A stretch of DNA of 64,000 bases from Candidatus Latescibacterota bacterium (GTDB lineage Bacteria > Latescibacterota > UBA2968 > UBA8231), in contig OZ241867.1 of assembly GCA_965203175.1 (NCBI GenBank), forward strand, positions 5,920,001 through 5,984,000. Reading direction: 5' to 3'. Of this stretch, positions 5,577-38,504 are shown in pieces; position 1 is the stretch's first letter; every line of letters starts with the position of its first letter. The translations under genes were made by a program, and so were the position numbers. The notes under the pieces were generated by a model. It had not been told where the DNA came from, ran no database searches, and worked only from the letters and a program-made list of their open reading frames with translations.

Positions 5577-6530
5577 GTGGATTTCTGGCGTGAAGAAATC
5601 TTTGTCCATCGCTTCTCCACGGCTGACTTTCTCGCCGCCTGTCACCAAGCGTTCGAGCGGTATGGCGCGGGGGTCATCGACAATCCACCGCGCACCGAAT
5701 CCGTCCAAAAGCGCGGGTCACTCGACTACTTTCGCTTGGATATGCCCGCCGAATGGCCGGGGAAGTTTCGCGCGCGAAAGATCATCGAAGAATTTTCAGA
5801 CGTGGCGACCGGACGACTGGCCAAGCGGGAGGCGTATATCGCATTTGAAGATCTGCAACAGGGCCGATCGTATCGGCTAGAGGCCGGGCACATCACCGAC
5901 TGGCGCACCGGCGCGGCGGGCGCGCTGGGTCTCCAATATCTAGCGGGCGCGGCCATCGAGCGAGTCGCCATCTTGGGAACTGGCCGGATTGCGCGGACTT
6001 TGGCCCTATCCTGCGACGCGCTCTTTGATTTGGCGGAAATTGCCTGCACGAGTCGCCGGGAGGCAAACCGGGCTGCGTTTGCCAAAGCGGTCGAGCCGGA
6101 CCTGCATGCGAGCCTGCGGATAGCAACGTCGCTAGAGACCTGTATCGCCGGAGCCGACGCCGTGCTGACGGCAGTGCCAACGCCGCAGCCCATTTTGACC
6201 TCCGCGGCCCTAGCCGAGGTTCCCTACCTCGCGATCCTCGCCGGGGATAGTCGCACGCGCCAGCTCGCGCCGGAAGTCCTCTATGAGCGCACGGTAGTCG
6301 TCGATGTGCTCGCCCAAGCCCAGAAGTCCGGGGAGTTTCGCTTTGCCGCCGAGCAGGGCCAAGCCGAGCAGATCGCCTTGGCGCGCAATGCCGAGGGCAC
6401 AGTACTAGATATCGGCGACGCCGCCTGCGGCCGGCTTGGCGCAATCGCGCCGAGCGTGGTTTATCTGACGGGGATGGGGGCGCAGGACTTGTGCGCGGCG
6501 GCCATGGTGTACCACCGCCTACTCACTTGA
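5577..6530 (+). CDS. Ornithine cyclodeaminase/mu-crystallin family protein
   Basis: ITDWRTGAAG, ILGTGRIA and LTGMGAQD motifs. Confidence 0.8.
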   Translation: MDFWREEIFVHRFSTADFLAACHQAFERYGAGVIDNPPRTESVQKRGSLDYFRLDMPAEWPGKFRARKIIEEFSDVATGRLAKREAYIAFEDLQQGRSYRLEAGHITDWRTGAAGALGLQYLAGAAIERVAILGTGRIARTLALSCDALFDLAEIACTSRREANRAAFAKAVEPDLHASLRIATSLETCIAGADAVLTAVPTPQPILTSAALAEVPYLAILAGDSRTRQLAPEVLYERTVVVDVLAQAQKSGEFRFAAEQGQAEQIALARNAEGTVLDIGDAACGRLGAIAPSVVYLTGMGAQDLCAAAMVYHRLLT

Positions 6531-9354
6531 ACAACCCCGAGTACTTAAAGGTCATAATGTAGTCCTGCGAGCCTTTCTTCTTGGCTCGGGGCCGACTGTC
6601 GTAAATATCCCAGCCGAAGCCGAAGAGAAACTGATCTTTGTAAAAGGAAACGGCCACGCCCAGAGAAATGGCCAGCGAGTTTCCGGTCGACAGAGCTTCG
6701 AGCACATTGCCAATGGCGGTGAAATGGATGCCGGAAATCAACGGATTATCCACGTTGTGCCAGCCGGCAAAGGCCAATCCAGGCAAGCCAATCAGACGCT
6801 CGGTTTGGCCTGGGACCGCGTTGCCGTCGACGTCGGTATAATTGCGCCCGGGGCGGATCGTCAAAAAGGAAACCAGCGGCTTGGCCTCAAATTCCCACTT
6901 CCAGCCCCCGGCTTCCAAAAGCTGCGACACGCTCTGCGGCGGGGCACCCGGGTAACTATGGGTAGTGATTTTGAGCCGCACTCGGCGATTGTCTTCTTCC
7001 GACAGCTGCAAGTTGAGATCCTCAGCCAGGACGCGCCCACCACTCGACTCGTAGATTGTGACCTTCTTCTTTTGGATACTGCCTTTGGGGGCGTAGTTTT
7101 CGTCGAGCCGGGTCCACTCAACGACCATCTCGCGACCGATCAGCACCCGCCGCAGCGAGTCGGGAATTGCAAAGGCCACATCCACTTTGGTGCCGTCTTT
7201 TTGCACGACGGGGACATTATTCCAGCCGACGGCCAAGGGCTGGGTCTTCTCGCCGCGCGAGACCAAAACCTCGACAATCTGCGCCAAGTCGATGTCTGCG
7301 AGCACCCCATCCCCTTTGTATTCGAGTGGACGGGCGCGATCCTTGACGTCGTTGCTGACCAACAAAACGCGTCCTCGGCGGTCGCCTAGGGCATCGGGCG
7401 TAAAAAAGAGCGTGAGGCGCGCGGACTCGCCCGGGGCCAGCGCGAATTGCGCCGGCTCAACGTGGGCCTCCTTGCTTTGAGGATGCGCTTCGACTTGCAA
7501 CACGGTATCGCCGACGTTGGTGGCCACTAAAGTCCTCTCCGTCTGCTCCCCCAAGACCACGTAGCCAAAATCGACGACACCCGCCGGATTTAACTCGATT
7601 TCCGCGGCCACGCCGTTGCCTTTGAGTAGGATGTCAAGCGCCATTATCTCATTCGCGCCCAAACCGTCCAAGCGCAAAGTCCCCGAAATCGCTCCGCGGG
7701 CCGACGGGCTAAAGGACACGTGCAGCGGCAAGGTGCGCTGGCTGTGGGCCGGCAGCAGGAACCTGCTGTCGGCGTCGATTGGGGTGTGGGCGGTAAATTC
7801 GGCGCTCGTCGAGCGAAGCTGGTGAATCTCAAAGTCGGCGTTGCCCACATTGGCTATCTCGACGACCCGGCTACTACTTTCGCCAACGGCAACGCGACCG
7901 AAGTCCACGGTCGCCGGACTGAGGGCGAAAAACTGACCTACGCCCTGCAAGCGCACGGTCTGACGCCTGGCTTCGGCCTCGACGTGGAGGATGGCTTGGC
8001 GAGCACCAGATTCCTTGGGCGAGAAACTCAGTGCCACTTGGGCACTAGCTTTAGGCTGAACGAGGACCGAGTGCTGTTCGAGACCGAATTCAACGCCCTC
8101 GTCAGCAGCCAAGGCAACCTTCACCACGCCCGGCTGTCCTCCCCTGTTCCACAACAGCAAATGGCCGTGCACGGTCCCGCCGATGGGCACGTTGCCAAAG
8201 TCAATGTCACCACTGATAATCTCGATGCTCGGCGGGCTAATTTGGCCGCGACCCGAGAGGGGGATGGCGACGGTGGCAGCTTGCGGATCGCTAGTGTATA
8301 GACGCAGGACGCCACTTTGGTCTCCTTCGCTCTGCGGCACAAACGCCGCGCTCAGGTCGAGCCGTCCCTCGGGAGCGATGGTCGCCGACGAGTCCCCGCC
8401 CCCGAGGGCAAAGGCCGCGCCCTCAATGGCGACGTTTTCAACGTGCAACTCGGCCTGGCCCTGATTGAGGACGGTCACGCGGTGCGCTAAGCGCCGGCCC
8501 ACTTCGACGGTGCCAAAATCGAGACCCACTTGCGGGAGAGGCGAAAAAGCCGCTTGCGGCACCAAACCACTCCCCCGCAGAGGAATGGACCAATTCCCAA
8601 AGTCGGGTGAAGTGACGACGAATTCAGTCGCGACCGGCCGCGCGCGCGTCGGGGCGAACGCAATGTCGATCCGCGTTTCACCGCTGGGGTCAGGCCAAGA
8701 GCCGACATCACCCTCAACGCTAAAGGGACCCCGTAGATCGACAACTTCCATCTGCCCAGCCATCACAGGTACGGTACCGGTGTTTTTGACGATAACAGCC
8801 GCCGTCGCCACTTGCCCGACGGGCACCGCGCCAAAATCCAGCCCTTCGGTCGGCAAAATCACCAAGGTCGGAACGACGGCTACCGCTTGGAGCGGCACGA
8901 CCAAGCGCTCATCTTTGAACAAGGCGGCCACCTGCAACGTCAGTTCGCCCACATACTCCCCGGCCACAGGGGCGCTGAAGCGCACTTCGAGGCTGCTGAC
9001 GCCCTTGCCGTCCAAGCGCAGCGTATCTGATAACGCGCTAAAGCCGTCGCCACTAATACCGACGGTCACCTCAAGTGCGTCGTCTTGCAGATTTTCGACG
9101 GAAACGGACGCTCGCGCCTCCACGCCGACGCCGACTACGCCCAAGTCGAGCGCATTCGGGGCAATGGCGAGGGGCTGGGCGAGCAGAACCGCTGGCAGAA
9201 TCAGGAGAGCGAGCAGAAGAAAAAAAGAAGAGCGACCAATCCGCCAGAATACCGAATACAATGTTTGTCGAAGTTCCACGTCGCAGAGGAGTGGAAAACT
9301 TCCTCTGAGGTATTCTTTACGCCGATTCAGGTCGCTCTCTATCATTCGAAACAT
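6523..9354 (-). CDS. Large secreted/surface protein with about six tandem Ig-like (ASH/choice-of-anchor D type) domains
   Basis: Repeated 'LDFGxVxVG...xxNxG...F.P...G...G.L' units; signal-like hydrophobic stretch; start uncertain. Confidence 0.75.
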   Translation of the reverse strand: MFRMIESDLNRRKEYLRGSFPLLCDVELRQTLYSVFWRIGRSSFFLLLALLILPAVLLAQPLAIAPNALDLGVVGVGVEARASVSVENLQDDALEVTVGISGDGFSALSDTLRLDGKGVSSLEVRFSAPVAGEYVGELTLQVAALFKDERLVVPLQAVAVVPTLVILPTEGLDFGAVPVGQVATAAVIVKNTGTVPVMAGQMEVVDLRGPFSVEGDVGSWPDPSGETRIDIAFAPTRARPVATEFVVTSPDFGNWSIPLRGSGLVPQAAFSPLPQVGLDFGTVEVGRRLAHRVTVLNQGQAELHVENVAIEGAAFALGGGDSSATIAPEGRLDLSAAFVPQSEGDQSGVLRLYTSDPQAATVAIPLSGRGQISPPSIEIISGDIDFGNVPIGGTVHGHLLLWNRGGQPGVVKVALAADEGVEFGLEQHSVLVQPKASAQVALSFSPKESGARQAILHVEAEARRQTVRLQGVGQFFALSPATVDFGRVAVGESSSRVVEIANVGNADFEIHQLRSTSAEFTAHTPIDADSRFLLPAHSQRTLPLHVSFSPSARGAISGTLRLDGLGANEIMALDILLKGNGVAAEIELNPAGVVDFGYVVLGEQTERTLVATNVGDTVLQVEAHPQSKEAHVEPAQFALAPGESARLTLFFTPDALGDRRGRVLLVSNDVKDRARPLEYKGDGVLADIDLAQIVEVLVSRGEKTQPLAVGWNNVPVVQKDGTKVDVAFAIPDSLRRVLIGREMVVEWTRLDENYAPKGSIQKKKVTIYESSGGRVLAEDLNLQLSEEDNRRVRLKITTHSYPGAPPQSVSQLLEAGGWKWEFEAKPLVSFLTIRPGRNYTDVDGNAVPGQTERLIGLPGLAFAGWHNVDNPLISGIHFTAIGNVLEALSTGNSLAISLGVAVSFYKDQFLFGFGWDIYDSRPRAKKKGSQDYIMTFKYSGLFK

Positions 9355-9375
9355 ACGCTTAAATAACCTACCGTG

Positions 9376-10542
9376 TCAAGCAGAGAGAATCTGTTTCAAG
9401 CCCCCGACGAGCCGATCCATGCCTTCGGCCACATCTTCTTGGCGCAGGGCACCGTAGGCAACGCGCAAATAGCAGTCCGCGCTCAATCCAAAAGCATTAC
9501 CGGGGATGACGGCGACCTTGTGTTCCCGCACCAAGCGAGCGACCACATCCATGGCGTCGAGGTCGCTTTGCAGACGCGCCAATAAATAAAAGGCTCCTTC
9601 AGCAGCCGGCACCTGCACCCACTCGCCGAGCGCTTCGAGTCGCTCTAGGCAAAGCCGACGCACCGCATCCATATCCGCTAGATGATTCTTACAGTATTCA
9701 GCTCCGGCCGCGAGGGCACCGAGCGCGGCGCGTTGCGAGATGACCGGCGGGCAGATGAGCACGGTATCTTGAATCTTTTCCAGCGCACCCAACAGGTGCC
9801 GTGGGGCCACGAGGTAGCCGACCCGCCAACTGGCGAGACCGTATGCCTTAGAAAAAGAAAATAGCGAGATCGTGTGCTCGGCGCTTTCGGGCAGTGAGCC
9901 GGGCGAAAAGTGCTGCGCCGCACCGTAAGTGAAGTACTCGTACGCCTCGTCGGCAAAGTGGTAGAGGCCCCGCTCGCGGCAGAGCCGATTGACCGCTGCC
10001 AAGTCCGCGGGCCGATAGACCGCACCCGTTGGGTTGTTGGGAGAGATCGTGACAATGGCGCGGGTGCGCGCTGTAATCGCAGCCTCAATCGCATCGAGGT
10101 CGAGCTGATAGGCATCGTCCGTAGCCACGAGCACGGCCCGGCAATTGGCCATGCCTACGGCCATTTCGTGGTTGAAGTAAAAGGGTGACATCACGACGAT
10201 CTCATCGCCTGGGTCGGCAACGGCGAGCAAGGCGTGGTAAAAGCCCATATTGGAGCCGGCCGTGACCATCATGATCTGGTCGTCGCCCACCTCGATTTGA
10301 TTTTCGCACGCGAGTTTTTGGCGCAGTTCTTCCCTGAGTTCGGGCAGACCGCGGGCAGCTTGATAGTGGTGTTCGACAATCGCGCTGCCGAAGCGGGCAA
10401 GGGCCTGCATGACCTGCGGCGGCGGCGGGTAGTGCACCACGCCCTGGCCGAGGGAAATGGTGCCCGGGTTGTCGCGAATGAGGGCGGCCACGTGCGGGAT
10501 CACCGGGCTCTGTACTGCCTGCATGCGCTTTGAGTCGATCAT
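9376..10542 (-). CDS. PLP-dependent aminotransferase class I/II
   Basis: SPNNPTG, DEAY and SFSKAYGLASWRVGY motifs. Confidence 0.92.
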   Translation of the reverse strand: MIDSKRMQAVQSPVIPHVAALIRDNPGTISLGQGVVHYPPPPQVMQALARFGSAIVEHHYQAARGLPELREELRQKLACENQIEVGDDQIMMVTAGSNMGFYHALLAVADPGDEIVVMSPFYFNHEMAVGMANCRAVLVATDDAYQLDLDAIEAAITARTRAIVTISPNNPTGAVYRPADLAAVNRLCRERGLYHFADEAYEYFTYGAAQHFSPGSLPESAEHTISLFSFSKAYGLASWRVGYLVAPRHLLGALEKIQDTVLICPPVISQRAALGALAAGAEYCKNHLADMDAVRRLCLERLEALGEWVQVPAAEGAFYLLARLQSDLDAMDVVARLVREHKVAVIPGNAFGLSADCYLRVAYGALRQEDVAEGMDRLVGGLKQILSA

Positions 10543-11441
10543 AGCACGTCCTGCAGCAGGTCGAACAGACGATCAATTTCAGCGCGCGTTTCCGCATCGA
10601 GCGCAAAGCTCAAAGGGCCGCGGTGGACTTGGTTGGGAAAGAGGCCGCGCTTGTGCATGAGGTAGCGCTCAACCACGATGAAGCCGTCCAAGCCCCCTTG
10701 GATCTGCAAAGTACACAACGCGCAGATGGGGAAATAGATCTGGTACGCGCGCTCTTCGTCGCCGGCTGCGAGGGCGCGCCACAAGGCCACCGTCCCATCG
10801 AGCAACTCAACGCCAGGAATGGTACCGCGAATGCCTCGACGGAAAGAATCAATCAGCAGTAAGCCACCGCTGCCTTCAAATATGCCGGACCGGCCCTCGG
10901 TGTGGTCGCGCAGGGCCGAAATGCAAGGCCCCAAGGGAGTGGCCTCGGGTTTGAAGAGGACGCGGTCGCCGTAGTCGCCAAAGAGCGACGCTTGAAATTC
11001 AATGCTCATCGGGTTGCCGACATACGAGCTGGCGTCTTGGATCATGACCGGGATGGAGACCTCGGCGAGCAGGGCGGTAAAATAGGCGCGCAATTCACTC
11101 TCCCCCAAGGCGCGGGAGATCGGCGGAATGGCCATGACGGCCGCTGCACCGCCGTCTTCCGCGGCACGGGCGTAGAGCCGGGCTTGGGCCGTGCCCTCGG
11201 CCCCAACGCCGATGATGACCGGCCCGCGTCCGCGGGCGAATTCCACTAGCCGCGCCGGAAGCGCCAGCCGCTCGTCAGCCGTCAGACGCAACAGATCGGA
11301 TACCAAGGCGAGGCAAAACCCGTGCGCCCCTGTCTCGAAAAGGTAATCGACTTCGCTTTCCAATACGGCGTAATCAATGGCTTGGTCGTCGGTGTACGGC
11401 ATGTGGACGACCGGCAGGACGTCTTTGATTTCGTAGCTCAT
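10539..11441 (-). CDS. Dihydrodipicolinate synthase-family aldolase/dehydratase
   Basis: DapA-like fold pattern (PY.DD..IDY, AIPP, IPVMIQD, FKPE). Confidence 0.82.
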   Translation of the reverse strand: MSYEIKDVLPVVHMPYTDDQAIDYAVLESEVDYLFETGAHGFCLALVSDLLRLTADERLALPARLVEFARGRGPVIIGVGAEGTAQARLYARAAEDGGAAAVMAIPPISRALGESELRAYFTALLAEVSIPVMIQDASSYVGNPMSIEFQASLFGDYGDRVLFKPEATPLGPCISALRDHTEGRSGIFEGSGGLLLIDSFRRGIRGTIPGVELLDGTVALWRALAAGDEERAYQIYFPICALCTLQIQGGLDGFIVVERYLMHKRGLFPNQVHRGPLSFALDAETRAEIDRLFDLLQDVL

Positions 11442-12292
11442 AGTCGTTGGCCTCGGCGTGCACGGCGTAGAATAGCAAAGAGTTGTTCGGCGATCTCGTC
11501 GTTGGCCGCCGCCAAAAAGTGCCCGAATTTGCGGCGCTGAGTATAAGTCGGTCGGCGGCGTTGTCCAATGTAGCAGCGCGCCCCGGCTTCTTCGGCAATC
11601 AGCGACGGCGGGCCCACGTCATAGACTTCGACTTGGCGCGTCAGGTACGCACACAGCGTGCCCTCGGCGATCTCTGTGAGGACCAATGCCGCCCCAATGG
11701 GACTTTCGCGCGGATTCAGCGCGGGGCGGACGAGGGCCTGATAGGGACGAGCCTTGGAAGAAATAAAGGCTTTATTCGTGCGCGGTTCGCCGGGTAGCTG
11801 CAAGCGACGCGGGCGACCATCGCCGACGCGCACAAAAGCACCCGCACCTTTAATGGCCGTAAAAATTTTGTCCTCTGAGGGCCGCGCGACAATCGCGGCC
11901 AGCATCTGGCCGTCGCAAGCCAAGCCGATGACAATGTGATAGGGAGCGTCGCCCCGCTTGAAGTGCAAGGTGCCGTCAATGGGATCGAGAATGACCGCAT
12001 AGGGCGAGGTGTTGCCGGCAAAGCGCTTTTTGAGCGGCGTGCGCTCTTCGGCGATGCAGCGCACAAACGGGAAGTGCTGGAGCACGGCTGCGAGGAGGAT
12101 ATCCTGCACGGCCGCGTCGAGGACCGTGAAGGCCGTGGAGGCGTCCTGCGCCTTGCTGCCGGTGAGGCTCTTGTCCGCAGCCTTGCCAATGTCGGCGACT
12201 TGGCCGTAGAAAATTAGCGAGGCGCGGGCGCACTGGCCGACGACCGGCAGCAGCGCGTCGATAAAGTCGTCGGGGTTGATGTTTTCGGCCAT
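11438..12292 (-). CDS. Inositol monophosphatase family protein
   Basis: AEE and ILDPIDGTLHF metal-binding motifs. Confidence 0.85.
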   Translation of the reverse strand: MAENINPDDFIDALLPVVGQCARASLIFYGQVADIGKAADKSLTGSKAQDASTAFTVLDAAVQDILLAAVLQHFPFVRCIAEERTPLKKRFAGNTSPYAVILDPIDGTLHFKRGDAPYHIVIGLACDGQMLAAIVARPSEDKIFTAIKGAGAFVRVGDGRPRRLQLPGEPRTNKAFISSKARPYQALVRPALNPRESPIGAALVLTEIAEGTLCAYLTRQVEVYDVGPPSLIAEEAGARCYIGQRRRPTYTQRRKFGHFLAAANDEIAEQLFAILRRARRGQRL

Positions 12293-17235: not shown

Positions 17236-18192
17236 ATGCCCTACAAAGTCCTAATCCGCTCGGAAATCGAACCGTATTACACCATCATCCCCATGATCGA
17301 GGAACGCGCCGAGATCGTGCGCTGGAATCCGCTGGATCCGCAGCCCCCGGCCGAACTCCTCCGCACCATCGAAGGCGTGTACAACTACGGCCACTACGCC
17401 TTCACCGCCGAATACATGGATCTGATGCCCGAGCTCCGCGTCATCAGCAACTACGGAGTCGGCGTCGATCACATCGACCTCCAAGCCGCTCAAGAGCGCG
17501 GCATCCCCGTAGGCAACACGCCCAAGATCCTCGACGGCGCAACGGCCGATATAACCTTCGCCCTCCTCTTGGCCGCGGCGCGCAACCTCATCCAAGGCGA
17601 CCACTTTGCCCGCGGCCCGGATTTTGTCGCCTACGATCCGAGCTTCATGCTGGGACAAGAAGTCCACCACCAAGTTCTCGGCATCATCGGGCTGGGCAGC
17701 ATCGGCTACCAAGTAGCGCGCCGCGCACTGGCCTTCGACATGACCGTCTTGTACCACAACCGCAACCCCAATCCCAAGGCCGAAGCCGACCTCGGAGCGC
17801 GCTACGTCGAGCTAGACGAACTGCTCCAGCAGGCGGATTTCGTGACCTTGAACATGCCACTGACCGATCAGACGCGGGGCATGATCGGCCGGCGCGAGTT
17901 GGGCCTGATGAAAAAGTCAGCGGTGCTCGTCAACGCCGCGCGCGGAGGAGTCGTCGATCACAACGCACTGGTAGAAACCCTACAAAACGGCGGAATCTAC
18001 GCAGCCGCCCTCGACGTAACCGAACCCGAACCCCTGCCCCGCGACCATCCCCTCCTAGCGCTGGACAACCTCGTCATCATACCCCACCTAGGCAGCGCAA
18101 CGCACCAGACGCGCCAAATCATGGCCGAGCGGTCGGTGGGCAACCTGTTGGCCGGGCTGGAGGGCAGAGAACTTTTGAGCCGTATCGTGTAA
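17236..18192 (+). CDS. D-isomer-specific 2-hydroxyacid dehydrogenase (glyoxylate reductase-like)
   Basis: GVGVDHID, GIIGLGSIG, NAARGGVVD, LDVTEPEP and PHLGSAT motifs. Confidence 0.92.
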   Translation: MPYKVLIRSEIEPYYTIIPMIEERAEIVRWNPLDPQPPAELLRTIEGVYNYGHYAFTAEYMDLMPELRVISNYGVGVDHIDLQAAQERGIPVGNTPKILDGATADITFALLLAAARNLIQGDHFARGPDFVAYDPSFMLGQEVHHQVLGIIGLGSIGYQVARRALAFDMTVLYHNRNPNPKAEADLGARYVELDELLQQADFVTLNMPLTDQTRGMIGRRELGLMKKSAVLVNAARGGVVDHNALVETLQNGGIYAAALDVTEPEPLPRDHPLLALDNLVIIPHLGSATHQTRQIMAERSVGNLLAGLEGRELLSRIV

Positions 18193-33866: not shown

Positions 33867-34634
33867 ATGAGCATCTTGGACCTTTTTAAGCTCGACGGCC
33901 AAACGGCCTTGGTCACCGGGTGCCGCCGAGGCATCGGACGCGGGTTCGCGCAAGCATTGGCCGAGGCCGGAGCGGATATCGTCGGCGTCAGCGCTTCACT
34001 CGAAGCAGACTCCGAAGTCGGCCAAGACATTGCCGAGCGCGGCAAAAACTTCACAGGCTATGCCTGCGACTTCAGCGACCGAGAGGCAGTCCGCGCCTTC
34101 GTCGAGCAGGTCAACGCCGAAGTCGGCCCAATCGACATCCTCATCAACAACGCCGGTACGATTCGGCGCGCGCCGGCTGAGGAACACGGAGACGAAGACT
34201 GGGACCACGTCATCGAGGTCAACTTAAACGCGCAGTTCGTGCTGGCGCGAGAATTCGGCAAGCAGATGCTCTCCCGCGGCCGGGGCAAGATCGTCTTCAC
34301 CGCTTCAGTGCTGACCTTCCAAGGCGGCATCACAGTGCCGGGCTATGCCGCGGCTAAAGGCGGAATCGGACAGTTGACGATGGCGCTGGCCAATGAATGG
34401 GCCGGTCGCGGAGTCAACGTCAATGCCATCGCCCCCGGCTATATCGCCACCGATAACAATCAAGCCCTGCGCGACGACCCGGTGCGCAACGAGCAGCTAC
34501 TAGTGAGAATCCCAGCCGGCCGCTGGGGCACGCCGGACGACTTAAAAGGCGCGGTAGTGTGGCTGTCGTCGCGAGCAGCCGACTACGTGCACGGGTCCAT
34601 CGTAATCGTCGATGGAGGGTGGATGGGGCGTTGA
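33867..34634 (+). CDS. kduD: SDR oxidoreductase, 2-dehydro-3-deoxy-D-gluconate 5-dehydrogenase-like
   Basis: TGxxxGIG, NNAG, FQGGITVPGYAAAK, ANEWA and RIPAGRWG motifs. Confidence 0.85.
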   Translation: MSILDLFKLDGQTALVTGCRRGIGRGFAQALAEAGADIVGVSASLEADSEVGQDIAERGKNFTGYACDFSDREAVRAFVEQVNAEVGPIDILINNAGTIRRAPAEEHGDEDWDHVIEVNLNAQFVLAREFGKQMLSRGRGKIVFTASVLTFQGGITVPGYAAAKGGIGQLTMALANEWAGRGVNVNAIAPGYIATDNNQALRDDPVRNEQLLVRIPAGRWGTPDDLKGAVVWLSSRAADYVHGSIVIVDGGWMGR

Positions 34635-35256
34635 TGACGGAAGAGTGCGCGCCTGCTAGCATTCTGGGGCAAGACGCTGCGTAGTTCTGACAATTCCTCG
34701 GGAACTGTATTCAATGATACCGAAGGGCAACGTAGCTATAAGCCTGTCTTACATCATTTAATGGATGTCGCTGCTGTCGCCCTGAGATGGCAGCAATTGA
34801 ATCCTGCCCGTCTTGAGCGCGAGGTCGCTTTGCTGAAAGCGAGTCCAGAGTGCTTATCCAAGATCACTTCTTTTCTGGCTGGCATACACGACCTTGGCAA
34901 AATTTCACGCGGCTTTCAGGCGAAGGTACCCGAATTGTGGCCAGAGCAGATCCCTAGCCCGAAGAGAGCAATCGCCGACCGTGGTCATTGGCGCAACACG
35001 GCTATCCTTCTCAGAGCCGAGCCAATCGCCCAAGAGTTCGCCAGCTTATTCCCTAGCATCCCTTATGATATAGCACCGATCATTGCTGCCATTGCGGGGC
35101 ACCATGGACGACCACCCGAGGGACAGGATGAAGTAAACGCCGATCCAGGCAAAGCTCGACGCGACCAGCAGCTTCGTGAAGAATGCGTGGACGCGGCTCA
35201 TACTGCCTTTTGTATTCTCCAAAACCTGATAGAGCCTCTGCCGTTATTGTCGCTCG
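34634..35256 (+). pseudogene. cas3: Truncated cas3 (HD nuclease domain only), type I-E
   Basis: FWGKT...HHLMDVAAVA, GIHDLGKISRGFQ and AIAGHHG motifs. The ATG at 34634 is out of frame with the body, and the ORF is cut at CRISPR repeat 1. Confidence 0.88.
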
Positions 35257-35347
35257 ATGTTCCCCGCAGGCGCGGGGATGAACCGTGGACCGTTTTCTTT
35301 TTCTCCCGACCGAAGACAATGTTCCCCGCAGGCGCGGGGATGAACCG

Positions 35348-35533
35348 CTACCTGGTGCAGCCGTCGCTGCACTAGTTGAGGCCCTAGATGTAGCGATAGA
35401 CGAACTTTTTGGTCAATGGCCAGGACACCCAGCCGATGTTCCGAAAGGCAAAGTCCAAAGCGCGTTGCTTAGCCTGTATGGCGTGGCTGGCGAAGCGTGT
35501 GACGACTGCGCCCGCTGGAATGCACGCCAATAA
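35348..35533 (+). pseudogene. 3' end of an unknown gene, cut at repeat 2
   Basis: Open frame (LPGAAVAALVEALD...ARQ*) begins exactly after the repeat with no start codon of its own. Confidence 0.45.
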
Positions 35534-35607
35534 AGGCGAACCCGCAGGCGGTGGCCTGTGGCCGGTCAATGGGCCGCCGCCGGAGACTTTATGAAAAGGA
35601 AGGAGGA

Positions 35608-36300
35608 ATGATGGACTATCATATAGAAGTCAAGAGAGCAGGGGGAAGGTCTCGCCACTTTCGTGGCTGCATCCCCAATGAAGACTGGTCTCGATTATTA
35701 GAATTCAGAGACGAAGTCCGCCGCATGACATCTCATTTTGTGAGATGCGGTATTACAAACCTGAACATTAGCACTACTCTCTCTTGGGATCAGGATGGGC
35801 TTAGATTCTCATCTAAAACTGATCTCAATGATGGACACATGAACATTATTCTCCATAGTATCAGACCTTTCCATCTTAAAAAGGAGCCTTTTTACTTTTG
35901 TAAAATGCTAAAAATTCTCAATCGCCATATAAATGGAAACCCTATTAACATGCTTTTTCGTAAAGCGAAAGACGATTTTCTTGGAAGAAATTTTCAAAGC
36001 CAAGTTTCTATTTCTTCCATTTTGGGTGCCGATCCGGGGCAGCATCACACTATTAACAGCGAGGATACGCTAAATCTATGGCTTAATGCGTATGAATACC
36101 ACAGAGACGAAAAGAAGAAGTTGCTTCTCGATGATATTTTGTCTAGTATTCCTAGGGGGTTTGGGGTCTCTGTATTTAAGTCTATGATGATAGACAAAAT
36201 AAGAGCCATCATATGGCTTAGTGATTTTATTTCCGCTATAGAAGAGTCGCCAACTGGAAGACGCTCGGCAAACGTTAAAAAGGAGGTGCTTGATGAGTGA
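35608..36300 (+). CDS. Hypothetical protein, possibly HEPN-like; AT-rich
   Basis: AGGAGG RBS; 230 aa helical protein with IRPF.L.KEP.YF and WLNAYEYHRD motifs. Confidence 0.7.
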   Translation: MMDYHIEVKRAGGRSRHFRGCIPNEDWSRLLEFRDEVRRMTSHFVRCGITNLNISTTLSWDQDGLRFSSKTDLNDGHMNIILHSIRPFHLKKEPFYFCKMLKILNRHINGNPINMLFRKAKDDFLGRNFQSQVSISSILGADPGQHHTINSEDTLNLWLNAYEYHRDEKKKLLLDDILSSIPRGFGVSVFKSMMIDKIRAIIWLSDFISAIEESPTGRRSANVKKEVLDE

Positions 36301-36919
36301 GAGTATCGAACATGTCCAAAAGCTGAGAAAGTTGAAGATGGCTTTCTTTGATTTGGAAGAGGCGTGGAATTATACTGAAATTCTGTTGAAAGGAAGATAC
36401 CATGAGGCCGACCCTTTTTCTTGGCATCCTAGAGGTAGGCCGCCAGAGGATCATCATATGAGAGAGGCATTAGTGACTGCCTTGGTTATCTCTCTATCTC
36501 GTGCCCAAAAATACTGTGAGGAGTGCCTTGAAACCCAAGAGGAAAAAGATTTTGCTAGAATGGTTAAATTCTTTAGAGATAAATACTTTGCTCATTCTGA
36601 CATTCTCCCTTATGGACCGAGTTTTATTCGTCCTGCTTGGGACGAGGGGCACACAAGACAGGCTCGGAGCCTAATAGAGAAAACCTTTAGACATTTGAAG
36701 AATAGCAATGATATAGCCAGAACCCGTATCACCCCTGAGATGACAAACGTCACTGAGTACCGTGTCGAAAATATCACATTCGACGAAATGTTCAAGCGAC
36801 TCAACGAGCTAGGCCAAGAAGGGTGGGAACTTTGGGAGCCTTTTGGCGAGAGGAAGAGGATACTAGATGAAGTGAAAAGAGAGTGGTTTTATAGAGTAGG
36901 TTTCAAGCGGATGCGCTGA
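36293..36919 (+). CDS. Putative HEPN-domain protein fused to a DUF4177-like C-terminal module
   Basis: AGGAGG RBS; ALVTALVISLSR and RDKYFAHSD (Rx5H) motifs; C-terminal EYRVE...LNELGQEGWEL. Confidence 0.65.
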   Translation: MSESIEHVQKLRKLKMAFFDLEEAWNYTEILLKGRYHEADPFSWHPRGRPPEDHHMREALVTALVISLSRAQKYCEECLETQEEKDFARMVKFFRDKYFAHSDILPYGPSFIRPAWDEGHTRQARSLIEKTFRHLKNSNDIARTRITPEMTNVTEYRVENITFDEMFKRLNELGQEGWELWEPFGERKRILDEVKREWFYRVGFKRMR

Positions 36920-36946
36920 AAAAGATCCTCATATCCCAGAAAAGAG

Positions 36947-37364
36947 ATGCCAACGACCAACCTTAATTTCTCCCCCGGCACCGTCTTCCACATGGACAAC
37001 TTGGAAGCACTGAGGGGCATGAACAGCAACACCGTCGACCTGATCGCCACCGATCCGCCGTTCAACACGGGCCGCAACAGGGAGGGCAAAGGCGGCCAGT
37101 ACCCGGACAGTGGCGTTGGGGCGACAATGTCCACTACGAGTGGATGGACCAGATACGCGACGACAACGAGCCGTTAGTTGAAGTGATTGAGTCGGCGATG
37201 CATGCGCACAGCTTCAACCTCGGCGCGTTCTTGTGCTTCATGGGCGTCCGGATGCTGGAGATGAAGCGGGTGCTCAAGGAGACGGGGAGCATTTACCTGC
37301 ACTGCGATCCCACGGCGAGCCACTACCTCAAGGCGAGCATGGACGCCGTGTTTGGTGGTGCCGA
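36947..37364 (+). pseudogene. N6/N4 DNA methyltransferase N-terminal fragment, frameshifted (~37108) and truncated at repeat 3
   Basis: DNLEALR...VDLIATDPPFN in one frame, continuing as RVLKETGSIYLHCDPTASHYLK..MDAVFG in another. Confidence 0.85.
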
Positions 37365-37620
37365 ATGTTCCCCGCAGGCGCGGGGATGAACCGTGGATTC
37401 GGCCAGACAAGCGGTTGGCGATCTAATGTTCCCCTCACACACGGGGATGGACTGTTGGTTGCATGACGACAATGACGACTTATGCCATATTCTCCACACG
37501 CGCGTGCTTAGGTGCGAAAACGGAGAAGATTCTGAGCGGCAACGGTAGCAATACCTTGCTGCTGAGCTACCTACATTCTAAACTCTAAAGCGACCCATGC
37601 GTTGATTAAGGAGTCCAAGA

Positions 37621-37917
37621 GTGAGCTTACAGAACGTTCCAGACAGCATTAAGCGCGATGTGGCCCGCGGAGTGGCGATCCTCAAAGAGGCAGGCTGTCA
37701 GCAGGTGTACGTGTTCGGCTCCGTAGCAGAGGGGCGCGTACGGCCCGGCTCAGATATTGACTTTGCCGTCCGCGGCTGTCCGGCGAAACTGTTCTTCAAA
37801 TTGCAGGGAAGACTGCTCATAGAATTGCGTCGCTCCGCGGATCTGATCGACTTAGATGCAGACCCAGATTTAACGGCCTTTCTCGAACGCGAAGCGGGCA
37901 TGATCCATGTTGGATGA
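37621..37917 (+). CDS. Minimal nucleotidyltransferase antitoxin (MntA-like)
   Basis: VYVFGS.A.G.....SDIDFAV motif, 98 aa. Confidence 0.88.
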   Translation: MSLQNVPDSIKRDVARGVAILKEAGCQQVYVFGSVAEGRVRPGSDIDFAVRGCPAKLFFKLQGRLLIELRRSADLIDLDADPDLTAFLEREAGMIHVG

Positions 37918-38410
37918 TCGTGCTCAGGCCCACATTGAGCGAGAATTGCAGCAGATCGAGAGCCTTTTTCTAGAATATCGCACACTGCTATCTGAGACTA
38001 GTATCAATGAACCCAATCTCGTTGAATTAACTGCATTAGCGGGCGTTCTCCATTCGTTCTATAACGGTGTGGAAAACGTATTCCAGACTATTGCTAAGCG
38101 AGTGGATGAGCAGATGCCAACTGGATCGAACTGGCATTGGGAGCTTCTCCACTTGATGGCTCGCAAGACGGACAACAGGCATCCTGTCGTCTCTCCAGAA
38201 ACAATAGATCGCCTTGAGCCGTACCTTGGATTTCGCCACTTCGTACGACACGCTTATTCCTTTCGGCTGAATTGGACGAAAATGGAGGATCTTGTGCTTG
38301 AGCTAGGCGAGGTCTGGTCAACATTTCGACAAGACATCAGAATATGGCTGGACTCAAAGCCAGAAGGATCTGTTGATCCCGATTCAAGCTCGCCAACGCA
38401 AAAAGAGTAA
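37907..38410 (+). CDS. HEPN RNase toxin (HepT-like), MNT-HEPN TA pair
   Basis: LHSFYNGVEN, WHWELL and FRHFVRHAY motifs; overlaps the MNT gene. Confidence 0.85.
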   Translation: MLDDRAQAHIERELQQIESLFLEYRTLLSETSINEPNLVELTALAGVLHSFYNGVENVFQTIAKRVDEQMPTGSNWHWELLHLMARKTDNRHPVVSPETIDRLEPYLGFRHFVRHAYSFRLNWTKMEDLVLELGEVWSTFRQDIRIWLDSKPEGSVDPDSSSPTQKE

Positions 38411-38504
38411 GGTTGCTTGACAAAATCGTTTTAGGATTTCCATTGAAAGCCAAATCAGTCCCTTCCCAACCCAATCACAACGCACTTTCCCGCGAGGAGA
38501 CCCC

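Follow-up and report, generated by a model that had tools for sequence, protein, structure and literature searches.

A 2-kb segment with two intact genes in the place of a spacer in a decayed type I-E CRISPR array of Candidatus Latescibacterota

In CRISPR systems of type I-E as known from E. coli, the protospacer-adjacent motif (PAM) is AAG, spacers measure 32 nucleotides (nt) and a PAM-derived G is counted as the last base of the repeat; integration proceeds by attack of a 3'-OH end at the leader-proximal repeat. Larger DNA can interrupt arrays in other ways. Insertion sequences (IS) and transposons, whose insertion sites fall within repeats or spacers, are marked by a transposase, by terminal inverted repeats and by target duplications, and the Cas1-family integrases of casposons can move kilobase-sized DNA. 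Varble et al. (2019, Nat Microbiol 4:956) reportedly showed by experiment that recombination between a spacer and its protospacer puts phage DNA into a CRISPR locus. The AP1.1 prophage of Streptococcus pyogenes enters type II-A CRISPR repeats, its attachment site attP sharing 8 bp with the repeat and any repeat being usable (10.1101/2020.10.09.333658). Here we analyze a 64,000-nt stretch of a Candidatus Latescibacterota genome (assembly GCA_965203175.1, contig OZ241867.1, positions 5,920,001 to 5,984,000; hereafter the window, whose own numbering is used for all positions in this genome unless another source is named), in which a 2-kb foreign segment with two intact genes occupies the place of a spacer in the remnant of a type I-E array.

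All parts of the array remnant are read on the forward strand. It comprises repeat R1 (35257-35285), spacer S1 (35286-35318), repeat R2 (35319-35347), the insert or 'giant spacer' of 2,017 bp (35348-37364), repeat R3 (37365-37393), spacer S3 (37394-37425) and a degenerate terminal repeat, R4 (37426-37454). As the initial annotation had it, R2 and R3 are intact and identical and the neighboring spacers are of normal size: R1, R2 and R3 agree without a mismatch over 29 nt, R4 differs from them at 6 positions, and S1 and S3 measure 33 and 32 nt. The partly palindromic 29-nt repeats in direct orientation and the spacers of about 32 nt are those of a type I-E array, and only the insert departs from the ruler-fixed spacer length of 32-33 nt. 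The repeat core, searched genome-wide with up to 3 mismatches, occurs at three sites only, R1 to R3, and the insert itself is single-copy in the genome except for a 244-bp methylase paralogue, 85% identical.

The spacer S3 is identical to the last spacer of the arrays in two other species of the genus (G022, and contig 61 of G006), where the degenerate repeat and the same trailer also follow; degenerate last repeats similar to R4 end the arrays of relatives. The insert therefore lies directly upstream of the 'anchor', the ancestral spacer that terminates the array at its old end. The absence from it of a transposase, of terminal inverted repeats and of a target duplication, noticed at the outset, held up in a repeat search and in Pfam searches: no terminal inverted or direct repeats and no target duplication were found at the edges, all repeats detected being internal and 10-22 nt long, no transposase or integrase was matched by Pfam, and searches of Pfam, PADLOC, NCBIfam and PHROG gave no phage-family or integrase match. 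An Rfam scan of 34500-38500 returned no meaningful match, and a promoter and terminator scan of the locus was uninformative.

The initial annotation had named as its main alternative an assembly chimera formed through identity of a spacer and its protospacer, and had proposed read coverage as a check. The genome is a single contig of 6,579,469 bp (6.58 Mb). In the likely source run, X15, contig depth is 30.6 over the cas3 remnant next to the array, 30.8 over 35333-37370 (the insert with the ends of its repeats) and 24-29 in the flanks, that is, without a jump at either junction. The insert is found in run X15 and in three further runs (X2, X17 and X7), whose contigs carry repeat, insert and repeat at about 98% identity. 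A 1,800-nt contig of X17 covers 35257-37066, a 1,816-nt contig of X2 covers 35259-37066, and a 2,376-nt contig of X7 starts 60 nt to the left of R1, spans the insert and ends at 37615, with only the S3 unit missing. The run evidence consists of contigs assembled with k=31, in which the order of spacers across 29-nt repeats is unreliable (X2 and X17). The contigs from X2, X17 and X7 contain 29-39 differing letters and 12-29 gap positions, partly in the region of S1, where other strains carry a different sequence; the X7 indels there fall at 35287-35317.

Evidence at the protein level agrees with that from the contigs. The two complete open reading frames (ORFs) of the insert, A and B, each belong to a 90% protein cluster of 23 members, encoded on contigs that include ones of 7,258,427, 852,725 and 833,947 bp. 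Four longer gene calls (P0020, P0021, P0024 and P0027) start in an upstream spacer other than S1 and cross the same junction of R2 and insert, reading RRRGDEP or RRRGNEP through the repeat and then LPGAA. Because the genome is one contig, depth is flat and the same junctions recur in three other runs and four gene calls, a chimera is excluded, and the spacer-mediated form of it is contradicted since none of the contigs breaks 32 nt into the insert. The insert is thus confirmed as real DNA, and its capture is an old event, inherited by a strain lineage. One contig of X15 joins 35348 to 37366 (side 28); considered as an excised form, it was set aside, as the joint holds repeat letters only and could be a walk of the k=31 assembly. 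Sixteen further runs, labelled as sponge, coral and marine metagenomes or as other organisms, contain 0.32-0.78 of the sampled words, from which we draw nothing, habitat included.

All frames of the insert lie on the transcribed strand of the array. The two complete ones are ORF A (35611-36300, 229 amino acids) and ORF B (36293-36919, 208 amino acids), and their initial description as AT-rich ORFs with strong ribosome-binding sites proved correct, GC content being 37-44% against about 62% in the flanks and the ribosome-binding sites being of AGGAGG type. For neither was a family found above threshold in Pfam, PADLOC, NCBIfam or PHROG, nor a sequence or fold match in the PDB. ORF A belongs to an uncharacterized family of proteins of about 215-235 amino acids, with 47 loci in the metagenome_contigs set at 24-40% identity and an invariant core W-L-N-A-x-E-Y-H; its AF2 model is confident (pLDDT, the predicted local distance difference test, 89.7) and matches no PDB fold at E<=0.001. 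In four loci, a type IIG Eco57I/MmeI-like restriction-modification fusion precedes the relative of ORF A by 183-205 nt, and a weakly matching homologue in G043 is preceded by a type ISP enzyme and followed by a TIR-like gene. The family may be an unrecognized restriction-modification or defense accessory protein.

ORF B is a near-orphan. A sub-threshold, Sp36-like match covers its C-terminus, and among 1.84 billion representatives its only remote relatives are 3 small proteins, P0032 (53%), P0033 (42%) and P0036 (31%), which cover the N-terminal two thirds; there is one weak match in the family (76 genomes) and none in genome_contigs. Fifteen of the 23 members of its cluster are listed; the alignment took in 14 of these and, as a fifteenth sequence, P0002 of a neighboring cluster. 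Of the 14, twelve have full length and are 95-99% identical to the window copy. Three kinds of in-frame indel occur in the alignment and a single frameshifted form, P0002, which is at most a weak hint of purifying selection. A crude comparison of amino acid divergence (1-5%) with nucleotide divergence (about 1-2%) gave no sign of purifying selection on ORFs A and B.

The right part of the insert (36947-37364) encodes the N-terminal part, about 139 codons, of an N6/N4 DNA methylase (Pfam N6_N4_Mtase), which is cut by R3 and frameshifted near 37107; the contigs of X2 and X7 have an extra C behind this position. The last Pfam match ends at profile position 70 of 221. The fragment is 74-78% identical in amino acid sequence to residues 3-144 of methylase-HNH proteins of 561 (G046) and 574 (G019) amino acids, whose genes stand between a DUF6785/DUF6784 gene plus a variable AT-rich ORF and trkA/trkH. 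The left edge is less clear. A start-less frame of 61 codons (35348-35533) is open from R2, with GC contents of 0.79, 0.50 and 0.47 at codon positions 1, 2 and 3. It has no homologue and no match in Pfam, PADLOC, NCBIfam or PHROG, also when the longer proteins were searched, and across the 76 genomes of the family nothing but itself scored below E 0.01; it is therefore not established as a gene fragment. Hence the initial statement that both edges cut through genes stands for the methylase, of which about 139 of 561-574 residues are left, but not for the left frame, for lack of a homologue.

Some further features of these genes may be noted here. In X2, X7 and proteins of the P0020 type, three duplications, a tandem one of 9 nt behind 35377 and two of 5 nt behind 35513 and 35581, jointly bring the left frame in frame with ORF A, which results in 338-residue gene calls starting in the array. 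In the loci of the two full methylase genes (L094 of G019, 6940-11619, and L095 of G046, 6563-11343) the AT-rich gene slot holds in one case an ORF with an FRG domain, and the order 'AT-rich ORF, then methylase' is that of the insert. The 244-bp paralogue (G000:C1:2271995-2272239; L005 1501-1745, minus strand) lies directly downstream of an AT-rich orphan ORF of 305 amino acids and near a PIN-like ORF, and a syntenic fragment is present in G011.

The insert had been taken for a contiguous piece of DNA from a mobile genetic element. What is borne out of this is a contiguous foreign segment, flush between intact repeats; a mobile origin is not, the methylase resembling chromosomal methylase-HNH genes that stand in variable AT-rich islets of the genus. 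The proposed BLAST comparison with phages and plasmids gave little: only 65 nt at 84.6% identity in 3 phage records, all methyltransferases of Streptomyces phages, and no plasmid match. Among the 31 genomes of the genus only methylase paralogues and the weak match to ORF A in G043 were found, none of the 47 metagenome loci of ORF A is adjoined by ORF B, the methylase or the left frame, and viral_contigs contains one distant ORF A locus. The settings of the methylase and of the ORF A relatives, taken together, make the donor look like one of the defense or restriction-modification islets that chromosomes of the genus contain.

The array is the fossil of a decayed type I-E system, a state that the initial annotation does not mention, any more than the frameshift of the methylase or the place of the insert beside the anchor spacer. 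A cas3 stump of 165 codons (34761-35256), which contains the HD domain (Pfam Cas3_HD, E 1.1e-20, profile positions 20-175 of 207), ends flush with R1. It is the only Cas3_HD match genome-wide, and Cas1 was not found in the genome, the other cas families not having been searched for in it. In nine genomes of the same genus (G020, G006, G014, G022, G001, G012, G009, G004 and G008) a full cas3 and a large array come after the SDR gene that precedes the stump (33867-34634 in the window), and their cas3 sequences cease to match the window at 35256-35258. At this locus G022 encodes Cas3, Cse1, Cse2, Cas7 (CT1975), Cas5, Cas6e and Cas1, the gene association of type I-E. Four other relatives (G002, G010, G005 and G021) have the SDR gene 6-13 nt from an MNT/HepT pair with no CRISPR-Cas between them, so that 34643-37606 marks the place of the island. 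The full island in relatives shows that this genome once possessed it and that all between cas3 codon 165 and a repeat has since disappeared: the codon now meets R1 flush, to within 1 nt of its first base, and the remainder of cas3 is missing, as are the cas operon, the leader and most of the array.

The insert is older than this deletion, since X7 has both the insert and cas3 past 35257. A separate 5,755-nt contig of that run carries cas3 beyond 35257 with unlike letters, and the repeat matching R1 is preceded there by unlike, spacer-like letters. On the other side, the pair that borders the CRISPR island in the window (37621-38410) consists of a nucleotidyltransferase (MNT, Polbeta/NTP_transf_2) and a HepT-like HEPN protein. 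Other strains have G at 35221 and 35222.

The two edges of the insert were compared with the geometry of spacer acquisition. An AAG at 37330-37332 stands exactly 32 nt upstream of R3, and given the AAG frequency of 0.0144-0.0147 one such exact match has p of about 0.015. We examined nine arrays, this one and eight from seven species, with 769 normal spacers; in the relatives' arrays, 757 of 769 spacers measure 32 nt and 11 measure 24-44 nt, with none of intermediate size. The last base of the repeat varies in these arrays, being G in most and A, C or T in few, which by analogy is the expected mark of a PAM-derived base. We also surveyed every junction in the fetched loci at which long non-spacer DNA abuts the start of a repeat (n=5). 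AAG occupies positions -35 to -33 at the right end of this insert and where the end of cas6e meets a repeat in G001, and positions -34 to -32, one base closer (31 nt), at the end of a 382-nt insert in G009; an internal cas6e junction of G001 has GCA. The exact match at 2 of 5 junctions, with about 0.07 expected, has a chance of about 0.002 in what is a small set picked post hoc. Because AAG stands exactly 32 nt before R3, and with the PAM assumed from E. coli-type I-E systems, we conclude that the right edge is most likely a PAM-measured protospacer end set by the adaptation ruler. The last 32 nt (37333-37364) would then be either a former spacer, y, or the ruler-trimmed end of a prespacer.

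Our best explanation, held tentatively and at somewhat less than even confidence, is that the insert was captured when two spacers recombined with their protospacers. The starting point would be an ancestor in which the type I-E system still worked and whose array held two ordinary 32-nt spacers, x and y, acquired from the same strand of an incoming DNA about 2 kb apart. The incoming DNA could have been a restriction-modification or defense islet of a related bacterium, or an element that carried one. Each spacer would have undergone homologous exchange with its protospacer, either in a double crossover with a linear fragment or in two steps, a single-crossover integration and then the loss of the self-targeted copy by deletion. 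What the array held between x and y would have given way to the donor DNA lying between the protospacers, with R2-x-[donor DNA including the AAG of y]-y-R3 as the result. The putative former spacer x would be the first 32 nt of the insert (35348-35379), and from the edges we infer both spacers. After the first crossover the remaining spacer would attack the integrated target, and survivors would be those that lost the PAM-flanked copy in the second exchange. The product would be immunologically silent, because x would be flanked by a repeat and not by a PAM and y would be without a 5' handle. Inserted at the trailer end, the segment would have been inherited by the strain lineage, and a later deletion would have fused cas3 codon 165 to R1 in this genome.

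Replacement of an array segment between spacers would lead to flush edges, to genes cut at arbitrary points and to a lack of transposition marks. In agreement with it, both junctions are flush at perfect repeats, without inverted repeats, target duplication or mobility genes; the flush deletion between cas3 and R1 in the same locus has the same geometry; the insert stands beside an anchor spacer common to two other species while flanking spacers vary; AAG occurs at the ruler distance before R3 and at one more of the surveyed junctions; and recombination of this type has a reported experimental precedent (Varble et al. 2019). Several points weigh against it. Two spacers must already have been in place, and both exchanges must have gone through no more than 32 bp of identity. 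The searches described above found no donor in which the AAG predicted upstream of the left edge could be read. Neither 32-nt edge is among the 769 spacers, which come from 8 arrays of 7 related species and not from sister strains, nor did the edges find an exact match elsewhere (the first in genome_contigs and viral_contigs, the last in viral_contigs). The PAM of this system is not directly established: when the relatives' 769 spacers were compared with this genome and with the loci fetched, no more than 2 protospacers turned up, one preceded by GGC and the other by TAG. The junction between cas3 and R1 has AAA, not AAG, at -35 to -33, and the junction statistic was built after the fact from few cases. 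Finally, the AAG geometry at the right edge is predicted equally by the direct action of Cas1-Cas2.

That action is the most serious competitor, though on balance we regard it as rather unlikely. Cas1-Cas2 would have joined a long, incompletely processed, PAM-anchored prespacer: the integrase would have bound a PAM site on long DNA, measured about 32 nt and attached the non-PAM 3' end at the leader-proximal repeat's 5' end, as in the normal first half-reaction, and with the PAM side left untrimmed the far 3' end, 2 kb away, would have been attached on the repeat's opposite side. The repeat would have been duplicated in gap repair, and later normal acquisitions would have pushed the unit toward the trailer. 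This is a single event without need of pre-existing spacers; it predicts the retained AAG and 32 nt at the right edge and nothing particular at the left, both junctions lie exactly at the integrase's two attack sites, and the place beside the oldest spacer fits an early insertion at the leader end. However, the I-E integrase is known as a strict ruler, we know of no report of its integrating DNA on the kilobase scale, and a search of the open-access literature found none. The near-uniform length of the relatives' spacers, none of them intermediate in size, speaks against such lapses, and the two ends of a 2-kb duplex could not normally both sit on one Cas1-Cas2 complex. Both routes had been named in the initial annotation, and both agree with the right edge. 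Recombination through two spacers takes more events but known activities only; the integrase route takes one event and an activity never reported for the I-E ruler. They can be told apart by a single prediction, since only recombination requires that the donor have a PAM upstream of the left edge.

It is improbable, in our judgment, that the cassette arrived ready-made, by repeat-to-repeat recombination, from another array or from a mobile element bearing the repeat. Identical 29-nt repeats are good substrates for recombination, ectopic repeat units exist in the genus (between cas7 and cas5, and in cas6e of G001), and the flanking spacers vary between strains with the insert conserved, a weak point as spacer order comes from k=31 contigs. 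Such an arrival only shifts the origin of the flush-cut genes and of the PAM-measured edge to the donor, and there is no further copy of the repeat or the insert in the genome and no repeat-bearing match among phages or plasmids.

An attachment-site element is more doubtful still, and we consider very improbable a prophage or integrative element that used the repeat in this way and has since been mostly lost. Integration of a prophage into CRISPR repeats is documented for S. pyogenes (10.1101/2020.10.09.333658). The insert has no integrase, no phage genes and no hybrid of attachment-site type, both repeats are perfect, and its right end is a gene cut in mid-domain and not the natural end of an element; joining the right end to the left through a repeat does not restore the methylase, the left frame being unrelated. 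Least probable of all are two separate small arrays around native DNA, as array finders would report them, or a chimera, conceivable in short-k assemblies: in G022 and G006 a single uninterrupted array ends with R3, S3, R4 and the trailer, R3 is here preceded by methylase coding sequence and not by a leader (that of the relatives ends in ...CAGTTAAGATTATGT), R2 is not degenerate, and for the chimera the one-contig genome, its even depth and the recurrence of the junctions in four runs and four gene calls, on contigs of up to 7.26 Mb, are as given above.

Other arrays of the genus suggest that the process recurs, to judge by a second oversize spacer and by repeat units outside the arrays. The former, the only other one in the nine arrays examined, is the 382-nt insert of G009 (L043, oriented 17545-17926), which lies between two perfect repeats near the trailer end. 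A Lys/Ala-rich tandem-repeat ORF, co-oriented with the array, is present in it with its 5' part, together with an ATG and a ribosome-binding site, and reads into the repeat; no donor of this insert was found among the 31 genomes of the genus. The ectopic units are of several kinds. Between cas7 and cas5 (oriented at about 5640-5750) lies a mini-array of two degenerate repeats around 32 nt, kept with a near-identical 'spacer' in four species (L037 of G022, L041 of G012, L039 of G006 and L042 of G001). It is reminiscent of the cas-regulating or CreA-like RNAs of other systems; no seed match of at least 9 nt was found for it within the G022 locus. In G001 (L042, oriented 6876-7361) a 29-nt repeat-like stretch lies in frame inside cas6e, whose ORF still matches the full Cas6e profile. 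The cas6e/cas1 junction of the same genome contains a repeat-32 nt-repeat block with a flanking 12-nt duplication, its 'spacer' being a diverged copy of the junction, and an AAG stands 32 nt before the first repeat.

CRISPR arrays are usually seen as stores of tags of about 30 nt, and here one holds a natural, inherited segment of 2 kb with two intact genes. We found no description of a natural kilobase-sized, gene-carrying spacer in the open-access literature searched. The array or its integrase may thus mediate horizontal transfer on the scale of whole genes and not only of short memory tags. Capture of long DNA by Cas1-Cas2, or through 32-bp spacer homology, becomes testable, and the case matters for array-finding software, which would split such arrays, for the use of arrays as chronological records and for Cas1-Cas2 recording technology. 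A further reading is that arrays of the genus repeatedly act as an integron-like platform for the capture and expression of genes. Either the adaptation machinery or spacer homology would bring in kilobase-sized DNA at the boundaries of repeats, and this DNA would settle at the trailer end; it would be transcribed with the precursor CRISPR RNA (pre-crRNA) and putatively cut by Cas6e at the flanking repeats as a defined messenger RNA; and ORFs A and B, co-oriented with the array, with ribosome-binding sites of their own and open in many strains, might be retained as useful, for example in defense or in stabilizing the array. As a whole we think this unlikely to be right.

How far the insert resembles described systems can be stated feature by feature. 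Like the spacer-protospacer recombination of Varble et al., our preferred explanation uses spacer-target identity as homology and leaves invader DNA flush with repeats. That work is reported to be a laboratory observation in staphylococci, read out as CRISPR-locus transduction, whereas the segment described here is natural, fixed, lineage-wide, 2 kb long and carries two genes in a type I-E array; it would moreover need two spacers, and it retains a PAM at one edge. Canonical I-E acquisition by Cas1-Cas2 shares with it the junctions at repeat boundaries, the duplicated repeat, the order PAM-32 nt-repeat and the PAM-like last base, but not the size (32-33 nt as opposed to 2,017 bp), nor the PAM kept inside the insert.

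With the AP1.1 prophage the insert has in common foreign DNA between CRISPR repeats and a split array, in which spacers may be deleted or moved; it differs from that element, a whole prophage with a site-specific integrase and an 8-bp att core, in having neither an integrase nor element ends, in the cutting of a gene at its edge and in its PAM-measured right end. An IS-interrupted array would show a kilobase-scale interruption as well, but with the transposase, inverted repeats and target duplication that are all lacking here. Casposons are unlike it in the same respects, the genome having no Cas1-family casposase and the insert neither terminal inverted repeats nor a target duplication. Integron cassettes offer an analogy in that genes stand between short recombination sites, array-like, co-oriented and driven by a promoter, although there is no integron integrase or attC here and one cassette only. 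By its sequence features, then, the insert lacks the marks of IS elements, prophages and casposons, and appears to work like spacer-protospacer recombination or like an aberrant form of canonical acquisition.

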